NCBI GenBank assembly: GCA_965207065.1
Contig: OZ242260.1
Location: 2,016,001-2,080,000 of the forward strand
Reading direction: 5' to 3'
Source of the DNA: a bacterium
GTDB lineage: Bacteria; UBA8248
Length of the DNA stretch: 64,000 nt
In this document: positions 52,438-64,000 of the stretch, one piece after another
How the letters are laid out: the number at the start of each line of letters is the position of its first letter
Numbering within the stretch: the stretch's first letter is position 1
The notes under the pieces: model-generated
What the model was told of the DNA's origin: nothing
What the model saw: only the letters and a program-made list of their open reading frames with translations
Databases searched by the model: none
Made by a program: the position numbers and the translations under genes

Positions 52438-52747
52438 TTTATATCCGAAAAATTCGATAAATATAGATAAATTCAGATAAATTCACGGGGTTTTTCGATA
52501 AATTATCGAGGGGAAATGCGGGGAATTGCGGTGCCCGGATGCGGGCAGATGCGCATGCGAAAACCGGCTCCGGCGGCCGGGTCCCGCCGCGGAATCCGGG
52601 CGCAGGGGAATTCTGTCATGACTCTTGCGTTCCCCGTTGACGGCAAATGCGCGGAATTGCGGGCGGGTGCGGTGGAGATGGGCGTTAATTTCGCGAATCG
52701 GCGGTTTTATCGTAGAATCGGGGCGGTTTTCTTGGTTAAGGAGCGCC

Positions 52748-53830
52748 ATGAACGTCACCAGACGCCGCTTGCTGCAGGTTGCGGGGCGAGTCGCGCCCCT
52801 GGCCGTGGTCGGAATCCCGCGCGACGCGCAGGCCTCGATGATGGGCCGCCTGTTCGACTGGCTGAACAGCCGTCCCGTCGAGACGCCCAAGCCCGGAGAG
52901 GGCATCCTCGAGTTCGCCGCGCGCGTGGTTCCCGAAGTCACGGCGAACGATAAATTCTACGTGCAGAGCATCGGCCATTCAGCGCCCAAGCTCTCCCGCC
53001 GGGAATGGCGATTGAAGGTCAAGGGTGAAGTAACCGAGCCTCTTTCAATTGCTTGGGCGGAGTTGAGCGCGCTCAGACAGGAGAAAACCTGGGCGACGAT
53101 GACCTGCATCGGAAACCCGGTGGGCGGCGGGCAGATTGGGAACGCCTTGTGGGAGGGAGTGCCGCTCACGACCCTCCTTGAGCGCTCCGGCGTGGAGGAA
53201 AACGTTCGCCGCTCGGTCTCCGCGAGGGTGATTTTTCGCGCGGCGGACGGATACCATGACGCCATATCTATCGAGCAGGCATTCGATTCGAGAACGCTTC
53301 TTTGCACCCGTATGAACGGGGAAATTCTTCCCCGGGATCATGGCGCTCCGCTCAGACTTCTATTGCCTGGGACTTACGGCCTCAAGAACGTCAAGTGGAT
53401 TGAATCCATTGAGATTACGACGAAGGGCCATGGCGGCTATTGGCAAAGGAGAGGCTGGTCGGATGAGGCGATTGTGGAGACGCTCAGCCGGTTCGAGGCT
53501 CCCAGAAGGCGCGTGGAGGTCCGGGCGGCGGAAGTCTGGCTCGTGGGCTCCGCTTTCGCGGGGGAGCGGGGAATCCACAGGGTGGAAGTGACTTATGGAC
53601 AGGGGAAGTATTCTCGGCCCTGGGCGCCCGCATTGCTCAAAAAGCCCCTGGGACCTCTCGCCTGGAGCCTCTGGGCGTTTCCCATGCGCTTTGCGGAAAA
53701 CGGATTCTATCCTGTGACGGTGCGGGCCATGGATGGGGCAGGAGAAGTTCAGACGGATGAGATTTCGGATCCACAACCCGGCGGGTCGACAGGGCGGATG
53801 GGACTCAGCATCTATGTGAAAGGGTTGTAG
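52748..53830 (+). CDS. Tat-exported sulfite oxidase family molybdoenzyme
   Basis: TRRRLLQ Tat motif; TMTCIGN..GNA.WEGV; MNGE.LP.DHG.PLR; YG.KNVKW; GYW..RGW; C-terminal VRA.D Ig-like domain. Confidence 0.88.
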   Translation: MNVTRRRLLQVAGRVAPLAVVGIPRDAQASMMGRLFDWLNSRPVETPKPGEGILEFAARVVPEVTANDKFYVQSIGHSAPKLSRREWRLKVKGEVTEPLSIAWAELSALRQEKTWATMTCIGNPVGGGQIGNALWEGVPLTTLLERSGVEENVRRSVSARVIFRAADGYHDAISIEQAFDSRTLLCTRMNGEILPRDHGAPLRLLLPGTYGLKNVKWIESIEITTKGHGGYWQRRGWSDEAIVETLSRFEAPRRRVEVRAAEVWLVGSAFAGERGIHRVEVTYGQGKYSRPWAPALLKKPLGPLAWSLWAFPMRFAENGFYPVTVRAMDGAGEVQTDEISDPQPGGSTGRMGLSIYVKGL

Positions 53831-53850
53831 GCGAAACAAGGTGATTTATG

Positions 53851-53888
53851 AAAAAACCCCGCCGGGTGACCGGCGGGGTTTCATTTTT
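53851..53888. terminator. Bidirectional intrinsic terminator
   Basis: A-tract, CCCCGCCGG/CCGGCGGGG stem, T-rich tract, between convergent genes. Confidence 0.8.
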
Positions 53889-53903
53889 CAGCGAAAGTGC
53901 TAC

Positions 53904-54962
53904 TTAACGGCGTTTACCGCCCACGATGTTCGTTGCGCGTTTTTGGCGCTTGATCATCCAATTCTTGGGCGCCTCGATGCCGCTTCGATCCAGAATGTCG
54001 AGGTTGTGCTGGTAGGCCATGTAGTTCTTGATGTAGCTGAGCGTGCCGCCGCGATGAGGCGCGCCAGGGGGCTGCCGGCCTTCGATCAGGTCGATCACGT
54101 TATAGACGGCTTCTTTCGCCATGGCGATCTGCTCGGCCAGGACAGCCGCATGCACCCAGCCGTCACGAATGTCTTTCTCGATGCCGACGACGAGGTTGTG
54201 CGTCACGATCTTGATCTGGCCGGGTTTGTAGCCGGCCGCTTTCACGGCGTCCACCGTACCGCGGGCGATGAGCGTCGCCCAGGGGTAAATGCCTTTTACG
54301 TCCGGGTGTTTCTTGAGCAGGTCCTCCGCCGTCTGGTATGCATGCTGCACGTTGGACTTGGTGAATTCCTTGGCCACAACCTTGATTTTCGGATAGTGGC
54401 TCAGGTAGTCCTCAAACCCTTTGGCCATGGAGGTCACCATTTCGATGCCGCTGGGTCCGGGCAGCATCATGACTTTGCCCTGGTAGTTGATGGCGTGGGC
54501 CATGGTGGCGCCGATGAGAAGGCCCAATTCATAGCTGTTTTTCATGACGCGGTTTTTGACGCGAGCGCTGTCGAGGTCGATGTTGTCCACGACGACCTTG
54601 ATGCCCTTGTCCATCGCCTTGTGTACAGCGTTCACCATGCCTTTGGTGCTGATCGGGCAGATGATCATCCCGTCGTACTTCGCCGCGATGATGTCCTCCA
54701 CGTGGGCCACCTGCTTGGGCAGGAACTCGTAGCCGCCCGCGTCGAACATGGTCACGGTCACGCCGGCGTCTTTTGCCGCCTGGACGCTGCCGTACCATTT
54801 CGAGAAGAAATAGGGGTCGACGCCGTTCGGCACGACGACGGCGATCTTGTATTTCTTTTTCGCCTTCACCCGGGCGTCAGCGTCCGGGGCCGCCGCCATC
54901 GACACAAACAAGAATGTGACGACGGAAGCGAGAATCATGAAAGAGCGGAACAGTTTTTTCAT
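53904..54962 (-). CDS. Sugar-type ABC substrate-binding protein (RbsB-like)
   Basis: Signal peptide; DPYF; Q...VED.IA...DG.II.P; HPDVKGIY; end of an RbsA/RbsC-like operon. Confidence 0.85.
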   Translation of the reverse strand: MKKLFRSFMILASVVTFLFVSMAAAPDADARVKAKKKYKIAVVVPNGVDPYFFSKWYGSVQAAKDAGVTVTMFDAGGYEFLPKQVAHVEDIIAAKYDGMIICPISTKGMVNAVHKAMDKGIKVVVDNIDLDSARVKNRVMKNSYELGLLIGATMAHAINYQGKVMMLPGPSGIEMVTSMAKGFEDYLSHYPKIKVVAKEFTKSNVQHAYQTAEDLLKKHPDVKGIYPWATLIARGTVDAVKAAGYKPGQIKIVTHNLVVGIEKDIRDGWVHAAVLAEQIAMAKEAVYNVIDLIEGRQPPGAPHRGGTLSYIKNYMAYQHNLDILDRSGIEAPKNWMIKRQKRATNIVGGKRR

Positions 54963-55051
54963 CTTGAATCTCCTCCTCGCAGAATGGGTTTCACGGACGA
55001 AGCGCTCTCCTCCGCGAAAGGGAAAAATTGACTACCCTATGAACATATTTT

Positions 55052-57098: not shown

Positions 57099-59057
57099 TC
57101 AATCCGCGGTCATGGCGTAGCGCAGAATGCCTTCCTGCGTTGCTTCGTTTCTGCCGATATCTGCTGTGAGTTGTCCTTCCCTCATCACCAGAATGCGGTC
57201 GCTCATTCCAAGAATCTCGGGCAGTTCACTCGAGATCATCATTACCGCGGCGCCGTCTTTGGCAAGTTGCAGCATCTGCGAGTGAACTTCGAATTTTGCG
57301 CCTATGTCTATTCCGCGAGTCGGCTCATCAAAGATGAGTACATTCGCGCGTCTGAAGAGCCATTTGGCGAGAACGACTTTTTGCTGATTGCCGCCTGACA
57401 GGAAGCGTATTTGCGTCTCCTGATCCGGCGTCATGATTTTTAGCTGATTGATGTGTTCATCTACGAGATCTTTTTCCATGGTCAAGTTGAGCAGCCACCG
57501 TTTAATGAGGCGGCGGAGATTCGCGCTTGTGGTGTTAAAGGCGACCGAGAGAACCTGGGTAAGGCCCTGGGTTTTCCTGTCCTCGGGCAATAGCCCCAGC
57601 CCGCGTCGTATGGCCAAGGTTGGAGTCCACTTGCGCTCATAGGTAAGGATTGTCAAGAATCGAATCAGAACCATAGCGACGCCACCCCAGATCATGACCC
57701 ATTCGAGAACGAAATTCTGAGTGAACAGACTCGTAATGACCATCGCACCTATCGCGAGGGCGTACCAGCTTGCGAAGTCGATGACCAAGGTGCGCCAATG
57801 ATACTGCCGCTCCATAAACCAGAGACCCGCTTGCCGTAAAACGACCAACCCGGCGGCGACGATATAGGGGGTGGGGCCGTTCGGTATATTGTACAACGGT
57901 CCGCCGATGATCCATTCATAAAACCACTTGCCACTGAATAGCGGTGGCGGTGAATTCATGTTGAGCGTGACGGGATCGTAAATTCCCTGAAAAATTACGG
58001 TGAACAAGGGCAAAGCCATAATTAAGACAACCACGTCCAAGATGGCCATCCAGAGCGGATAGTGGGGGAGATTTTGTATCTCTTCTTTTTCTTTTGTCGC
58101 ACGAGTCATCTCTACGGTGCCGCTATCAACGGGATCCGCACCCATTACGGCCCGCGCCACTTCTGTTCTCCCTGCCCCTACGAGACCCGAGAGGCCGACG
58201 ATTTCTCCATAGTGGAGGTCGAAGTTGATGTCTTCGAATACGCCGTTTCGGGTGAGTCCACGCACCCGCAAAGCTACTTCTCCATGTTCACGGGGTGTCC
58301 AGGGGAATTTCTCATCAAGTGTGCGCCCCACCATCTGCGTGATCAGGAAATCGAGTTCCACCTCTTTGACTTCCCACGTGCCCATATATTCCCCGTCGCG
58401 CAGGACGGTGACGCGATCTCCAATCTCGTGGACTTCTTCAAGGCGGTGGGAGATGTAAATGATGCCGACACCGTGTTCTCGCAACCGGTTGACGGCCTTG
58501 AAAAGTTCCTCGATTTCATGCCCGCTCAGAGAAGAAGTGGGCTCATCCATCACCAATATTTTGCAGTCAAATACAAGAGCCCGGGCGATCTCCACCATTT
58601 GCTGATCCGCGACGCTTAGAGAGCGGACCGGCGCGTTGACGTCGATTTTCGCGTCCAGGCGCTCCATGATTGCGCGGGATTCTTGCTCGACTCTAGCCCA
58701 ATCCACACGCTTCATGATGCCAGGCAGTACCGGTTCACGACCCAGGAAGATGTTTTTGGCCACGCTCAGATCAGGCACCAGGTTCAGTTCCTGGTAGATG
58801 ACGCTGATTCCCAAATCGCGCCCGGTTCTGGCGTCGGGGATAATGGTGGGTGTTTCGCTAATCTCGATTTGGCCTGAGTCGGCGTGATACATGCCTGCCA
58901 ATATTTTGATGAGTGTGGATTTTCCGGCCCCGTTTTCACCCAACAGAATGTGAATTTCGCCCTCGGCGAGATCGAAATCAACTTCTTTGAGCGCATGAAC
59001 GCCCGGAAAGGATTTGTCGATTTCCATCATTCTGAGCAAGTTCTTGGATTCAGGCAC
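57099..59057 (-). CDS. Sugar-type ABC dual-domain ATPase (RbsA-like) with an internal membrane insertion
   Basis: GENGAGKST, MDEPT, SHRL, GLVGAGRTE, PEDRK, LSGGNQQKV, DEPTRGID; 652 aa against roughly 500 aa for typical RbsA. Confidence 0.92.
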   Translation of the reverse strand: MPESKNLLRMMEIDKSFPGVHALKEVDFDLAEGEIHILLGENGAGKSTLIKILAGMYHADSGQIEISETPTIIPDARTGRDLGISVIYQELNLVPDLSVAKNIFLGREPVLPGIMKRVDWARVEQESRAIMERLDAKIDVNAPVRSLSVADQQMVEIARALVFDCKILVMDEPTSSLSGHEIEELFKAVNRLREHGVGIIYISHRLEEVHEIGDRVTVLRDGEYMGTWEVKEVELDFLITQMVGRTLDEKFPWTPREHGEVALRVRGLTRNGVFEDINFDLHYGEIVGLSGLVGAGRTEVARAVMGADPVDSGTVEMTRATKEKEEIQNLPHYPLWMAILDVVVLIMALPLFTVIFQGIYDPVTLNMNSPPPLFSGKWFYEWIIGGPLYNIPNGPTPYIVAAGLVVLRQAGLWFMERQYHWRTLVIDFASWYALAIGAMVITSLFTQNFVLEWVMIWGGVAMVLIRFLTILTYERKWTPTLAIRRGLGLLPEDRKTQGLTQVLSVAFNTTSANLRRLIKRWLLNLTMEKDLVDEHINQLKIMTPDQETQIRFLSGGNQQKVVLAKWLFRRANVLIFDEPTRGIDIGAKFEVHSQMLQLAKDGAAVMMISSELPEILGMSDRILVMREGQLTADIGRNEATQEGILRYAMTAD

Positions 59058-59301
59058 GGGACCTCGCTTCCAAGTAAGGTAATATAGCTCCCAACTAAAT
59101 GGGCGAACGAATGCGTACCATCACCCATCAAATTTGTAAAGCTGCAGTTTTTTAGGACTAACCTAAACCTTATCGGGGATGGGATTGTTTATCGATACGA
59201 AAATTTTCAGGAAATGTTCAATGAGACAAATCATTTCATCAATGACATGCTATAATTCTAACTTGCGTGTCTTAACGCTATAGTTCTTGAGGGCTTTTTG
59301 A

Positions 59302-59565
59302 ATGCGCTATCTTAAAATGTTGGGGATCTTTGTTTTCTTTCTGATGAGCATGTCTAGTGCATTTGCCGAGGAAACTAGTAGTGAAACCGATGCGTGTCTT
59401 GTCACGCTTTACAACTATCCTGCCGACACGACTCAGTACGGTGTTTCGAAGAAAACGCTACCCAAAAGGTCCTTGGTTCTGGAAAAGAATAAGCGGGCAA
59501 GCAAGACCAGCGAGAGTATCCATTCACGGATGAGCCTTTCCCAGGAACGCCCAGGCGATAAATAA
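59302..59565 (+). CDS. Small hypothetical secreted protein
   Basis: Signal-peptide-like MRYLKMLGIFVFFLMSMSSAFA; TGCTATAAT extended -10 about 50 bp upstream; no recognised domain. Confidence 0.4.
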   Translation: MRYLKMLGIFVFFLMSMSSAFAEETSSETDACLVTLYNYPADTTQYGVSKKTLPKRSLVLEKNKRASKTSESIHSRMSLSQERPGDK

Positions 59566-59598: not shown

Positions 59599-60207
59599 TT
59601 AACTGTCGATGACGCTTCGGTATTCGGCGGACGGGGTATGTTGTGCCGGCCAGTCCATGCCGTCTTCAAATCGCGCGAGGACGCTCGCGTGACGCGCAAA
59701 GCCGCCCTCCAGCAATGCGACGGAGACGATTTCCACGATCGCCGGCTCGTCGAAGCCATGCTCGCGCAGCGCCTGGAACTCTTCGTCGCTCATTTGTTCG
59801 TTGAGCGTGAGTTTTCTGGCCACGCGGAAAACCGCTTTTTCCGCTTCGGGCAAATCCGCATTTTCAAAGTCATGGAGTTTTTCCACTTCATACTCGTCGA
59901 GTTCCATGCGGTGGATGAGGTCGGTTTTGTGGAAATTCACGCAGCGTGGACAGTCCGAGGCGACTGCACAAACCATGGCGATGCGATTGGTCAACTCGCG
60001 TGAAATGTGGCCGTCCAAAACTTCGAGACGTTTCTGCAGTTCCCAGAATCCCCTCAAAAGGCCCGGTACGTGGGCGAAAAACCCGAACAAAGGTCCCAGC
60101 CAGCGCGGGTCTTTTAACCGGCATATTTCGTCATAAATCTGTGATACTTCACCTTCGGCTTCATCGGGTTTTACGAGATGAAATGTCTCAAAACCGGATG
60201 TGCTCAT
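59599..60207 (-). CDS. AhpD/carboxymuconolactone decarboxylase family (peroxidase-related) protein
   Basis: CPRCVNFH (CxxC..H) motif, L..AEKA, LREHGF...IVEI. Confidence 0.8.
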   Translation of the reverse strand: MSTSGFETFHLVKPDEAEGEVSQIYDEICRLKDPRWLGPLFGFFAHVPGLLRGFWELQKRLEVLDGHISRELTNRIAMVCAVASDCPRCVNFHKTDLIHRMELDEYEVEKLHDFENADLPEAEKAVFRVARKLTLNEQMSDEEFQALREHGFDEPAIVEIVSVALLEGGFARHASVLARFEDGMDWPAQHTPSAEYRSVIDS

Positions 60208-60342: not shown

Positions 60343-61314
60343 TTACATCATGCCCGATTCTTTCCAGTAACGAGCCGCACCCGGGTGAATCTTGAGTTTC
60401 TTCATGCCGCGAAGGCCGGTCTTTTTGGTGACGAACTTTCCGGTCGGGTGGTATTTGGTGATTTGCTTGTGATTGTCATACAGGGCTTTGACGATCCCGT
60501 ATGCGTTGTCGTTGCTCATTACGCTGTTGGTCATCAAAGTCCACATCTGACCCCAGCTTACGACGTCTTTTTTGTATCCGGGAATGGAGCCGGCGGTCAC
60601 GACATCGCGCACGATGCCTGCTTCGTTCGTAGCCAGTGCTTTGATGGTGGCTTCATCCGGACCAAAGAAATGAAGTTTGCCGGAAAGCGTGCGCGCGAGT
60701 TCCATGTACACAGGTGCGGGAACGTTCGCGTTCAGAAAGAAAAATCCCGCGTCCACTCTTTCGTCTCTGATAGCGGCTGCATTCTGGGGATTGTTGAAGA
60801 ACTCTTTTTTCGCATTCACGCCACTGTGTTTAAGCGCAAGCTGCGTCACGATATAAATGGAACCCCCGCGACCGCCGACGACAAATCTTCTTCCTGTGAG
60901 GTCGGACCATTTTTTAATTCCGGAGGTTTTGAAGGTCGTATAGACAGTCGTCAATGGGTATAGGGCCCCTAACGCCAGCACGTCTTGAGGTTTCTTGAAT
61001 GGTTTTCTACCCGTTTGCCCCCACGAAACGGCAGGCGCAGTGGCCATGCCTATGCGGAATGGCTGCATCTTGTTCTTTTTCTGCAGGGTTCGGACATTTG
61101 CGGTCGAACCGCCGGTAATGGATGCAGCCACCGAAATCTTTCCGCCCGAGTTATCCGTGATGACTTTACCCATTGCGGTTCCAATCTCGAAGGTTGCGCC
61201 GCCGGGCTGGGACGTTCCCAACAGTATTTTGGCTGCGTCCGCCGCCGGGGCCGTGCCGATAACCAAGGCAAGGCCTGCTGCCAACGTAATCAGCCGAAGT
61301 GTGGATTTCCTCAT
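60343..61314 (-). CDS. TAXI family TRAP transporter solute-binding protein
   Basis: Signal peptide; GT..PGG; TGGS.AN; DL.G.R; HPGAARYW.E.G. Confidence 0.9.
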   Translation of the reverse strand: MRKSTLRLITLAAGLALVIGTAPAADAAKILLGTSQPGGATFEIGTAMGKVITDNSGGKISVAASITGGSTANVRTLQKKNKMQPFRIGMATAPAVSWGQTGRKPFKKPQDVLALGALYPLTTVYTTFKTSGIKKWSDLTGRRFVVGGRGGSIYIVTQLALKHSGVNAKKEFFNNPQNAAAIRDERVDAGFFFLNANVPAPVYMELARTLSGKLHFFGPDEATIKALATNEAGIVRDVVTAGSIPGYKKDVVSWGQMWTLMTNSVMSNDNAYGIVKALYDNHKQITKYHPTGKFVTKKTGLRGMKKLKIHPGAARYWKESGMM

Positions 61315-61584: not shown

Positions 61585-64000
61585 ATGACTACTGAATCAG
61601 AACCCACCCAGTCGGCTCCTCTCGTAAGGGCTCTGGTTTTCATCACCTCCTGGCTGTGCGTACTCTCGGGTTTGTACCACATATCCGCAGTCTATCTGCG
61701 GCCTTTACCGGGTGAGATGCACCCCAACATGCACATGCTGTTGGCCTATACCATTCTCCTCATCGGCGGCGCCGGGGCGATGCCTCAGATATATGGGGAT
61801 AAAATTCGCAAATTGAATTTTCTTCCCGTTCTGTACCTATTGTCTTTGATTCCCGCCGTTATTTTCTATTACTTCGTATATGAGATGGGAGAGGGTTGGT
61901 CTGATGCGAGTGTTTGGTGGGTTTATGCGCTCCCGTTCGCTATATGGATAGCGATGATGGTTGTGGAGAAGTCATGGCTTGCGCTTTTTCTCTGGTTTTT
62001 GGGCTTAGTTCCTGCGCCCATACTGTTCTGGTATTGGGATTATTTGCCAGAAAGCACGCATGAGCCCACCTTTTGGTGGCTGATAATCGCATGCTCCGCC
62101 ATTCCCACGATGTGGACCTTGTTCGCGGTTTTCTTCAGGCCTGCCGAAGGGGTGAAAAAGGCGGGTGTTTTTCTCGTTATATTTTTCGTAGCGCTTGTTC
62201 TAATCGGATGGCGGGTAAGTTTATGGGCCGGGCAAAGCGATGATGTGAGAAGCGCTTTTTACCTCTGGCCGGTAGTCGTACTCGCTTTTCCTCTTTTCTG
62301 GGCGAAAAGACGCATCAAAGAGGTATTTGAAGAATTCCCGGCACACCCTTTTCCGGCTGGTTTCACGATTGGCCTGAACGCCGGGATGCTCTTTTTCGTG
62401 GCGACTGCGTGCCTCTACCTGTTCTACTACCACGAAGAGATGGTAGACCGCCCGGGCGCTCCGACGATTGGCGATGCTCGCGTCGGCTTCGTCATGCTCG
62501 TCGTCGCTATCGAATTGACGAGGCGTTGTTTCGGGCCTCCCCTGCCAACATTGGCGGTTATTGCTTTCGTCTATGGGATTTGGGGCAATTTGTTCGCACC
62601 TCCTTTCGGGCATGGTGGCCATACATGGCTCGAACTTCAAGCGAAACTATCGACGGACTTTATCGGTGGCGTATTGGGCTTTTTGGTCGTCATTTCGGCG
62701 ACCTTCATCATCATGTTCCTTATTTTAGGAGCGTTTCTGCATGAATCGGGCGCAGGCCGTTTTTTCGTGAATTTCGCTTTAGGTCTGTTCGGGAAAATGC
62801 GAGCTGGCGCCGGTCTCGCCGCTGTGGGGTCGAGCGCGCTCATGGGTACGGTGTCGGGCAGCGCATCAGGCAACGTCGTGACCACCGGCACATTCACGAT
62901 TCCCCTGATGAAGCGAATCGGGCTGAGTCCACACATTGCCGGAGCGGCGGAAGCGGCGGCCAGCAGCGGGGGGCAGATCATGCCGCCTGTCATGGGGGCG
63001 GGCGCCTTCATTATGAGTGAACTCATCGAAGTGCCGTATTTCCAGCTTATCGGATACGCCACCATACCGGCCATCTTGTATTTCACCATCGTGGGGATCA
63101 ACATCCACTTTGCGGCCGGTGCGCTTAACATCCAGCCGTTGCCTACTAACGAAATTCCGAGTTGGAGGGTGGAACTCAGAAACGGATGGTTCTATCTCGT
63201 GCCCCTGGCGTTTTTGGTCTACTTCCTTTTTCAAGGCAGAACGCCAGTCTTTGCGGGCGTCATGTCGGTTTTCATCATGGTGGGCATCTGGTTTTACCGG
63301 AACGTGGCGGAATTCCTGGGTACGATGAGGAGGGGTGATAAGACAATCGCAGATGATGTATTCGTTTTTGTGCCTGTTCTGTTTTGGGTTTTCGCATTTT
63401 TCTTATACACGTTGCTCACGGTTTTCGAGTTGGGTTTCGGATTACCGTTGGGGATATATGAAAAGCCGACTTGGGGCGGGGCGATAAGGGCTGCTCTGTC
63501 TATGGGTGTCGTCGGATTTGTTCTGGCGAGTGTTTTCGCTCGCAAGTTCTCCTGGGTGCGTGAATTCTGGCGCGAGACAGAAAGCAACTGGCTCGCCATC
63601 TTCCCAATCACAATATTGGGTTTGTGGGTGGCGTTCGGCTGGTCTTCCGGCGTGGCGGGAGCCGCCCTCGTGCTTGCCCTGTTGTGTGTATGGTCCGTTT
63701 CCAGGGGCAATGGAGCGCAACCCACTACGACAATACCCTGGTATTTTGTCATGATTTGGGTGGGTGCATATTACGTGCAAAAAGGGATTTATGCGCTTGT
63801 CCCAGCGATAGCGAATTTCGGCGAATGGTTCGTTCCCTTCGGGTTCATCTATGACGGCCTGATCTTTTTCGGGTTGGCAGTGATTGTCCAGAGAGTCATA
63901 TTTTCATTCGGCTCGCAAGAATCCGAGGCCGATGGCCCGACGCCGAGCGTAAAGCAGGTGTTGGCTGTATCCTGCAATCCGTTTACCTATTTACAGCGCG
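61585..64000 (+). CDS. TRAP 4TM/12TM fused permease, truncated by the window edge and absent from the ORF track
   Basis: Manual translation from ATG 61585 (AGGAG upstream) reads open toward the edge: IELTRR..G.PLP, GAFL..SGAG, GTVSGSASGNVVTTGTFTIPLMKR, EAAASSGGQIMPPVMGAGAF; divergent from the TAXI gene. Confidence 0.9.
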   Translation, partial: MTTESEPTQSAPLVRALVFITSWLCVLSGLYHISAVYLRPLPGEMHPNMHMLLAYTILLIGGAGAMPQIYGDKIRKLNFLPVLYLLSLIPAVIFYYFVYEMGEGWSDASVWWVYALPFAIWIAMMVVEKSWLALFLWFLGLVPAPILFWYWDYLPESTHEPTFWWLIIACSAIPTMWTLFAVFFRPAEGVKKAGVFLVIFFVALVLIGWRVSLWAGQSDDVRSAFYLWPVVVLAFPLFWAKRRIKEVFEEFPAHPFPAGFTIGLNAGMLFFVATACLYLFYYHEEMVDRPGAPTIGDARVGFVMLVVAIELTRRCFGPPLPTLAVIAFVYGIWGNLFAPPFGHGGHTWLELQAKLSTDFIGGVLGFLVVISATFIIMFLILGAFLHESGAGRFFVNFALGLFGKMRAGAGLAAVGSSALMGTVSGSASGNVVTTGTFTIPLMKRIGLSPHIAGAAEAAASSGGQIMPPVMGAGAFIMSELIEVPYFQLIGYATIPAILYFTIVGINIHFAAGALNIQPLPTNEIPSWRVELRNGWFYLVPLAFLVYFLFQGRTPVFAGVMSVFIMVGIWFYRNVAEFLGTMRRGDKTIADDVFVFVPVLFWVFAFFLYTLLTVFELGFGLPLGIYEKPTWGGAIRAALSMGVVGFVLASVFARKFSWVREFWRETESNWLAIFPITILGLWVAFGWSSGVAGAALVLALLCVWSVSRGNGAQPTTTIPWYFVMIWVGAYYVQKGIYALVPAIANFGEWFVPFGFIYDGLIFFGLAVIVQRVIFSFGSQESEADGPTPSVKQVLAVSCNPFTYLQR

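Follow-up and report, generated by a model that had tools for sequence, protein, structure and literature searches.

We identified an ATP-binding cassette (ABC) transporter ATPase in a bacterium of the phylum Nitrospinota in which the second nucleotide-binding domain (NBD2) is interrupted by 159 additional residues, and these residues very probably fold as four transmembrane (TM) helices with both ends in the cytoplasm. The gene is located in a window of 64,000 nucleotides (contig OZ242260.1 of assembly GCA_965207065.1, positions 2,016,001 to 2,080,000), where it forms an operon with two permease genes and a gene for a periplasmic sugar-binding protein (Table 1; positions are counted from the first nucleotide of the window). 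The insert is real, is translated in frame, is under purifying selection and has a fixed length, and the analysis confirmed a variation on a familiar machine that is conserved, is restricted to one lineage and has so far not been described. In the textbook ABC importer a soluble ATPase docks from the cytoplasm onto separate membrane subunits, and a membrane module nested inside the ATPase departs from this rule.

The insert in the second nucleotide-binding domain

Its domain content, its motifs and its operon place the protein in the broad CUT2 family of ATPases (TC 3.A.1.2: RbsA, AraG, XylG, MglA), which likewise have two NBDs fused in one chain. The Pfam domain ABC_tran matched in three stretches (8.8e-48), one of them at residues 23-175 in NBD1. 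Of the NCBIfam models, AraG (548.5 bits, cut-off 689), XylG (510.3 bits, cut-off 699) and RbsA (509.8 bits, cut-off 745) matched over their full length, and MglA scored 472.2 bits (cut-off 828), each of the four in two stretches. As all substrate-specific NCBIfam cut-offs were missed, no sugar can be assigned to the ATPase. The partners in the operon, BPD_transp_2 permeases and a Peripla_BP_4 binding protein, are also those of CUT2 systems, and the module is additional to a complete transporter, as an initial annotation of the sequence had proposed. The open reading frame (ORF) of the ATPase starts with a GTG at position 59057, with ATG codons at residues 10/11 as alternative starts.

The initial annotation had further described about 159 extra in-frame codons after the motif DSGTVEM, at a site where RbsA-type proteins have about ten residues, flanked on either side by intact ATPase motifs. 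Each of these points held. Positions 57630-58106 of the minus strand translate without a stop into 159 residues, which follow the ...DSGTVEM strand of NBD2 and precede its WTPTLAIRRG...EDRK segment. Alignment with six CUT2 ATPases that lack the insert (50-59% identical, 497-513 amino acids) showed 7-8 residues at this site in these relatives, between the strand that follows the Walker A helix and the (S/T)PxDAI...EDRK motif. The short turn in the relatives, compared with 159 residues here, places the insertion at the turn of a beta-hairpin in the peripheral beta-subdomain of NBD2. CUT2 ATPases are usually soluble proteins of about 500 amino acids with 7-8 residues at the hairpin turn, in contrast to 652 amino acids and a predicted four-TM module in the protein described here.

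Direct reading of the sequence identified Walker A, Walker B and signature motifs in both NBDs. NBD2 deviates from the consensus at three places, with Arg instead of the Walker A Lys, Glu instead of the Q-loop Gln (EDRK) and Ser instead of the H-loop His, and has a consensus-like signature (LSGGNQQK). The insert-less CUT2 relatives share the motif features of both NBDs, among them Arg in Walker A, EDRK and Ser in the H-loop of NBD2, and these features are therefore a family trait. The nucleotide site around NBD2's own Walker A thus departs from the consensus, and in the head-to-tail arrangement of an NBD dimer the insert lies beside this site.

The possibility that the insert was created during assembly was examined at the level of the genome and of independent contigs. 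The window belongs to a closed genome of one contig (4,476,866 bases), in which the insert occurs once. A contig of 13,617 nt from another sequencing run covers the whole gene and both junctions, with 9 differences over 2,301 bases, and a contig of 2,764 nt from a different study likewise covers the gene with both junctions, with 34 differences. Misassembly, which the initial annotation had named as a possible refutation, is excluded by the closed genome, by these contigs and by the presence of carriers elsewhere in the phylum. The alignment of junctions in public runs covered four runs; joints in run X4, with sides of 20-26 nt, were cross-matches of ABC genes of other organisms and were disregarded. 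The insert does not differ from its flanks in G+C content (0.46-0.56 in the insert), and a scan for mobile-element footprints found short chance repeats only, none of them at the junctions.

Selection on the insert was analyzed in 26 of the 27 loci found in the phylum (see below); the remaining locus was left out for a change of frame. The insert is 159 residues long without a single gap in 26/26 frames. Median dN/dS (the ratio of non-synonymous to synonymous substitution rates, Nei-Gojobori method) was 0.116 for the insert versus 0.047 for the flanks, based on the 230 of 325 pairs with a flank dS of 0.1-1.5. When 228 pairs were pooled, the predicted periplasmic loops had a dN/dS of 0.051, the TM helices 0.197, the cytoplasmic linkers 0.082 and the NBD flanks 0.052. 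Among 45 unique orthologues, 49% of the columns are invariant in loop 1, 67% in loop 3 and 48-59% in the NBDs (51% in NBD1); the helices have 17-39% invariant columns and the short cytoplasmic loop has none (0%).

The initial annotation had noticed four hydrophobic stretches, and the hydropathy, the distribution of Lys and Arg and the predicted helices all fit a four-pass module. Kyte-Doolittle hydropathy (19-residue window) passed the threshold of 1.6 in three segments of the insert (around residues 330-361, 423-451 and 449-473) and nowhere outside it, where the maximum was 1.04; a fourth segment (residues 396-414, TM2) peaked at 1.23. AlphaFold2 predicted four long helices and a short helix in loop 1, and in the model of the insert alone TM1 was a helix at insert residues 18-39. 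Seven Lys/Arg residues were counted among the 28 residues assigned to the cytoplasm versus one among the 45 assigned to the periplasm, which fits the positive-inside rule; the single Lys in loop 1 is found in 36% of the sequences. Both ends of the insert run into the cytoplasmic NBD2, so that both must be cytoplasmic and the number of passes must be even. Such a four-TM insert would make the ATPase an integral membrane protein and would place about 45 highly constrained residues (loop 1 and loop 3) on the periplasmic face. The linker leading back into NBD2 at the C-terminal side is about four residues long and would hold NBD2 close to the bilayer if the helices are membrane-embedded. Every helix has one invariant charged residue at 5-7 residues from its cytoplasmic end (Asp341, Arg408, Asp427 and Arg466), and in the predicted bundle these four probably pair as a layer of salt bridges that holds the bundle together.

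Distribution and relatives of the module

The insert was found in 27 of 51 Nitrospinota genomes, all of one family, and none of the matches contained an internal stop. Not counting the genome of the window, the carriers are 21 of 22, 4 of 5 and 1 of 1 genomes in three genera, and 0 in the 12 other genera. Two genomes within the carrier genera have no insert: one is 79% complete, and the other (97% complete) also has no match to the ATPase at E <= 1e-30. That orthologues retain the insert, which the initial annotation had put forward as a check, was thus seen in 27/51 genomes of the phylum, always with 159 codons in the 26 frames examined. One genome has, in addition to the complete operon, a partial second copy on another contig (G050:C91:4312-4905), which corresponds to the first 200 residues of the ATPase (80% identical).

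A word-indexed database search with residues 315-490 identified 21 proteins with the insert, with identities of 64-88% across this part of the sequence. A length of 643-670 amino acids was found for 18 of the 21, and those of the 21 with a named source are labelled Nitrospinota or 'bacterium'. For relatives of residues 1-317 the best 120 of 7,994 matches were inspected, and more distant CUT2 ATPases with an insert are possible. These 120 consisted of 20 members of the insert family, 99 proteins of 496-523 amino acids and one other long protein, P0025 (759 amino acids, from a metagenome). P0025 was rejected as another inserted form, as it consists of three NBD-like parts and lacks a hydrophobic insert. 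Its second NBD seems to be truncated, with another complete motif pair after it, and the protein represents a natural partial triplication or a chimera created during assembly. In the genome of the window, 100 ORFs matched the NBD profile and four of these had a segment with a Kyte-Doolittle value of at least 1.6 between NBD-aligned pieces. Only the ATPase described here has several hydrophobic segments in an unaligned gap; the other three each have one borderline segment in the aligned core. The module is confined to one transporter lineage in three genera of one Nitrospinota family.

The nearest ATPase without the insert is P0059 (502 amino acids, genome G012), which is from the same family and is 58% identical to residues 7-315 and 63% identical to residues 475-649. 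Its operon has the same order of genes (ATPase, two permeases, binding protein). The permeases of this insert-less system are 36-40% identical to those of the insert system and the binding protein is 39% identical. Because of these diverged permeases and binding protein, the P0059 system is considered a related transporter and not the same transporter minus the insert. No form intermediate between the insert-less and the insert-bearing ATPase was found.

No described domain or architecture was matched in Pfam, NCBIfam, sequence, ESM Atlas, fold or literature searches, in line with the statement in the initial annotation that the architecture was not recognised. The insert had no match to a Pfam or NCBIfam family at E <= 0.1, and a phmmer search of 1.84 billion cluster representatives of any length returned only the representative of its own family. 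A possible free-standing ancestor was searched for with a profile of 25 inserts among proteins of 87-279 amino acids, and 0 of 3227 candidates scored. The ESM Atlas yielded no usable match to the insert. A Foldseek search of the insert alone, as suggested in the initial annotation, was run against the PDB with the low-confidence model (mean predicted local distance difference test, pLDDT, of 58) and gave nothing at E <= 0.001, the best E-value being 2.8. With VIA-align the same model was most similar to 6m49_A (Insig; Z 8.6, root-mean-square deviation 3.4 over 108 residues), and 4xu4_A, a mycobacterial Insig homologue, had a Z of 6.0. These rows are no evidence of kinship with Insig, as the Z values are below the chance level for helical bundles (about 13) and the pLDDT of the model is 58. 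An origin as a duplicated permease segment was rejected (hhalign probability 0.1-0.2%). The insert is therefore without detectable relatives; a shared fold is still possible, given the low confidence of the fold model.

A review (PMC4245157) describes the core transmembrane domain (TMD) and NBD subunits of ABC importers as individual chains. Fused TMD-NBD exporters (ABCB1, MsbA-type) resemble the present ATPase in having membrane helices and an NBD in one polypeptide. In these exporters a terminal translocation domain of six helices precedes or follows an uninterrupted NBD, whereas here four helices are nested inside NBD2, and the translocation domain is part of the exporter chain, whereas here the translocation domains are encoded by separate genes. 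Regulatory inserts are tolerated by the NBD beta-subdomain, as in the regulatory insertion of NBD1 of the eukaryotic protein CFTR, which is short, soluble and disordered. The CFTR insertion differs from the insert in the ATPase in its position and does not form a membrane module. In the published literature, with subscription journals thinly covered, no report of membrane helices embedded in an NBD was found. The ATPase indicates that a complete membrane domain can be accommodated in the hairpin that follows the Walker A helix, and provides a clean case of a membrane domain without detectable ancestor that is restricted to one lineage, a group of Nitrospinota, and became fixed there under strong selection.

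Near-identical copies of the gene were present in public runs from 10 studies. Several of these runs are labelled sponge metagenome, which hints that the lineage lives in sponges.

Possible roles of the module

The initial annotation proposed a membrane-tethered ATPase whose insert acts as an anchor, a sensor or an extra channel component. An ATPase embedded in the membrane is supported by the hydropathy, the distribution of Lys and Arg and the predicted helices; among the three roles, a mere anchor is disfavoured by the constraint on the loops. We tentatively prefer the reading, to which we give somewhat less than an even chance, that the module serves the transporter as an integral accessory element which exposes a conserved periplasmic surface and is not a passive tether. 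The module would be positioned beside the permease pair and would fix NBD2 at the membrane, and its conserved periplasmic surface would touch the outer loops of the permeases or the docked binding protein. Selection on a tether would act on hydrophobicity rather than on the sequence of its outer loops, whereas constraint on the insert is strongest in these loops, which favours an accessory element over a plain anchor. The ATPase would represent a natural construct with the motor covalently fixed to the bilayer and a conserved surface exposed on the far side, and contacts of the periplasmic loops with the binding protein or the permeases would mean a new coupling of substrate delivery to ATP turnover. 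A more specific form of this reading is unlikely: the ATPase itself would extend through the membrane, and its strongly constrained periplasmic loops would touch the docked binding protein or its ligand and signal via the four-helix bundle into the beta-subdomain of NBD2, beside the non-consensus nucleotide site. If true, an ABC importer would have a second route of trans-membrane signalling, which bypasses the coupling helices of the permeases.

Several observations weigh against an accessory element embedded in the membrane. TM2 is weakly hydrophobic (Kyte-Doolittle 1.23). The confidence of AlphaFold2 in the insert is low (pLDDT 30-45 in the full-length model, mean 58 for the insert alone), and the bundle and the pairing of the charges are therefore not established. 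Membrane insertion, topology and contacts with the permeases or the binding protein are all features that we infer, and among solved structures no close CUT2 ATPase relative was found from which the direction of the NBD2 hairpin with respect to the membrane could be judged. Contigs from RNA libraries cover parts of the gene, including the interior of the insert, and none bridges a junction by at least 31 nt on both sides; as RNA libraries may contain DNA too, transcription is not proven. Finally, the ATPase gene of carrier genome G049 (G049:C539:4571-6536, locus L025) has a frame change near residue 533, which divides it into pieces 6-533 and 533-652. The frame change marks a pseudogene or a sequencing error in this assembly of 540 contigs. 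A complex prediction of the insert with both permeases, which had a score of 0.00 in both runs and a mark of 0.32, counts neither for nor against binding.

The most probable alternative, although we consider it unlikely, is a passive membrane anchor, in which the helices only keep the ATPase near the permeases, for example when permease binding is weak, and the loops bind to nothing. In agreement with an anchor, the insert is hydrophobic with four predicted passes, and the C-terminal linker of about four residues keeps NBD2 near the bilayer; in Escherichia coli the association of RbsA with RbsC is reportedly nucleotide-dependent. A passive anchor does not account for loops that are constrained like the catalytic domains (dN/dS 0.051 vs. 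0.052) and more than the helices (0.197), nor for four invariant charged residues within the membrane, and one helix would suffice as a tether.

Less probable still is an autonomous sensor or regulator, in which the bundle would sense an ion, protons, the membrane potential, a lipid or a small molecule and gate ATP turnover via NBD2 independently of the permeases. The invariant Asp341, Arg408, Asp427 and Arg466 inside the predicted helices and the conserved outer loops would suit such a function, and regulation is plausible at the insertion point as it adjoins the non-consensus nucleotide site. The charges are equally explicable as structural salt bridges, however, no similarity to known sensor domains was detected, and the module was never found outside the operon of ATPase, permeases and binding protein.

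It is very unlikely that the module forms an extra wall of the translocation pathway, with the four helices joining the permease heterodimer and lining or gating the channel. Co-inheritance of the module with distinct permeases, whose identity with the permeases of the nearest insert-less system is 36-40% compared to 58-63% for the ATPase, would agree with this. Both permeases are complete, though, the profile comparison gave no relation between insert and permeases (hhalign probability 0.1-0.2%), and by dN/dS the constraint on the insert is weakest in the helices. A non-functional or artefactual insertion (assembly chimera, remnant of a mobile element or neutral junk) has a negligible probability: the lack of relatives elsewhere would also be expected for de novo or junk sequence, but the genome is closed, the junctions are covered by independent contigs, the insert is present without an indel in 27 genomes of three genera at a dN/dS of 0.12, and it has no junction repeats and the same G+C content as its flanks.

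The operon and its surroundings

The order ATPase, permease 1, permease 2 and binding protein is kept in 21/21 related loci. The exceptions to completeness are one locus without the last gene and two with a cut gene, in each case by a contig end; the binding-protein gene is accordingly present in 20/21 loci, the exceptional locus stopping at a contig end. Both permeases are full length and match BPD_transp_2 from end to end. The top solved relatives of the binding protein are CUT2 monosaccharide binders (about 1e-20).

TABLE 1. Coordinates of the ATPase gene, the parts of its product and the other features of the operon.
Feature	Position	Strand	Characteristics
Tandem-NBD ABC ATPase gene (CUT2/RbsA-AraG-like), 652 amino acids	57099..59057	-	Single ORF; Pfam and NCBIfam matches
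NBD1, residues about 8-250	58308..59036	-	Consensus Walker A, Walker B and H-loop; deviant signature LSVADQQ
NBD2, N-terminal part, residues 255-317	58107..58295	-	First strands, Walker A (Arg for Lys), helix 1, first hairpin strand (TVEM)
159-codon insert, residues 318-476	57630..58106	-	At the turn of the beta-hairpin after the NBD2 Walker A helix
Cytoplasmic N-linker, residues 318-334	58056..58106	-	Charged; AlphaFold2 short helix 319-328, then invariant PHYP; 3 Lys/Arg
Predicted TM1, residues 335-357	57987..58055	-	Invariant Asp341; Kyte-Doolittle 2.67; AlphaFold2 helix 335-356
Predicted periplasmic loop 1, residues 358-396	57870..57986	-	Pro/aromatic-rich; invariant WFYEW; 49% of columns invariant
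Predicted TM2, residues 397-415	57813..57869	-	Invariant Arg408-Gln409; Kyte-Doolittle 1.23; AlphaFold2 helix 396-415
Short cytoplasmic loop 2, residues 416-422	57792..57812	-	Least conserved part of the insert, 0/7 columns invariant; 2 Arg
Predicted TM3, residues 423-445	57723..57791	-	Invariant Asp427; Kyte-Doolittle 1.78; AlphaFold2 helix 421-445
Predicted periplasmic loop 3, residues 446-451	57705..57722	-	Invariant TQNF; 4/6 columns invariant
Predicted TM4, residues 452-472	57642..57704	-	Invariant Glu452 (outer edge) and Arg466; Kyte-Doolittle 2.02; AlphaFold2 helix 451-475
C-linker (residues 473-476) and rest of NBD2 (477-652)	57102..57641	-	EDRK, LSGGNQQK, Walker B, Ser
Permease 1, 337 amino acids	56063..57076	-	BPD_transp_2 1.2e-25; adjoins the ATPase in 21/21 related loci
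Permease 2, 331 amino acids	55052..56047	-	BPD_transp_2 3.7e-32; in 21/21 related loci, one cut by a contig end
Periplasmic sugar-binding protein, 352 amino acids	53904..54962	-	Signal peptide; Peripla_BP_4 7.7e-42
Hairpin, 12 bp, G+C-rich	53854..53881	.	Between the convergent binding-protein and molybdopterin-oxidoreductase genes; consensus scan only

The hairpin downstream of the binding-protein gene is likely the end of the operon. On this side the operon is flanked by a gene for a molybdopterin oxidoreductase (sulfite-oxidase-like) at 52625-53830 on the plus strand (Oxidored_molyb, 1.4e-41). A frame of 396 codons at 53841-55031 on the plus strand, antisense to the binding-protein gene and rich in His, Asp and Arg, looks like a shadow frame of that gene, which is the real one.

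Upstream of the ATPase gene, the intergenic region 59058-59400 has a G+C content of 0.37, compared to a genome mean of 0.59, and is probably the promoter or regulatory region of the operon. A consensus scan found no convincing sigma-70 site within 59058-59400, and the lone match nearby (59609-59580) is located just upstream of it. The flanking gene on this side (59599-60207, minus strand) has a weak match, below the cut-off, to the carboxymuconolactone-decarboxylase/AhpD-like family (7.8e-4).

A tripartite ATP-independent periplasmic (TRAP) transporter of the TAXI type is encoded next to these genes. Its binding protein (NMT1_3, 1.7e-41) is encoded at 60343-61314 on the minus strand, and its fused membrane protein of more than 805 amino acids starts at 61585 on the plus strand and runs past the end of the window (61585-63999+). 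The DctM match of this membrane protein begins at residue 303 and is preceded by a Trp-rich, multi-pass N-terminal extension.

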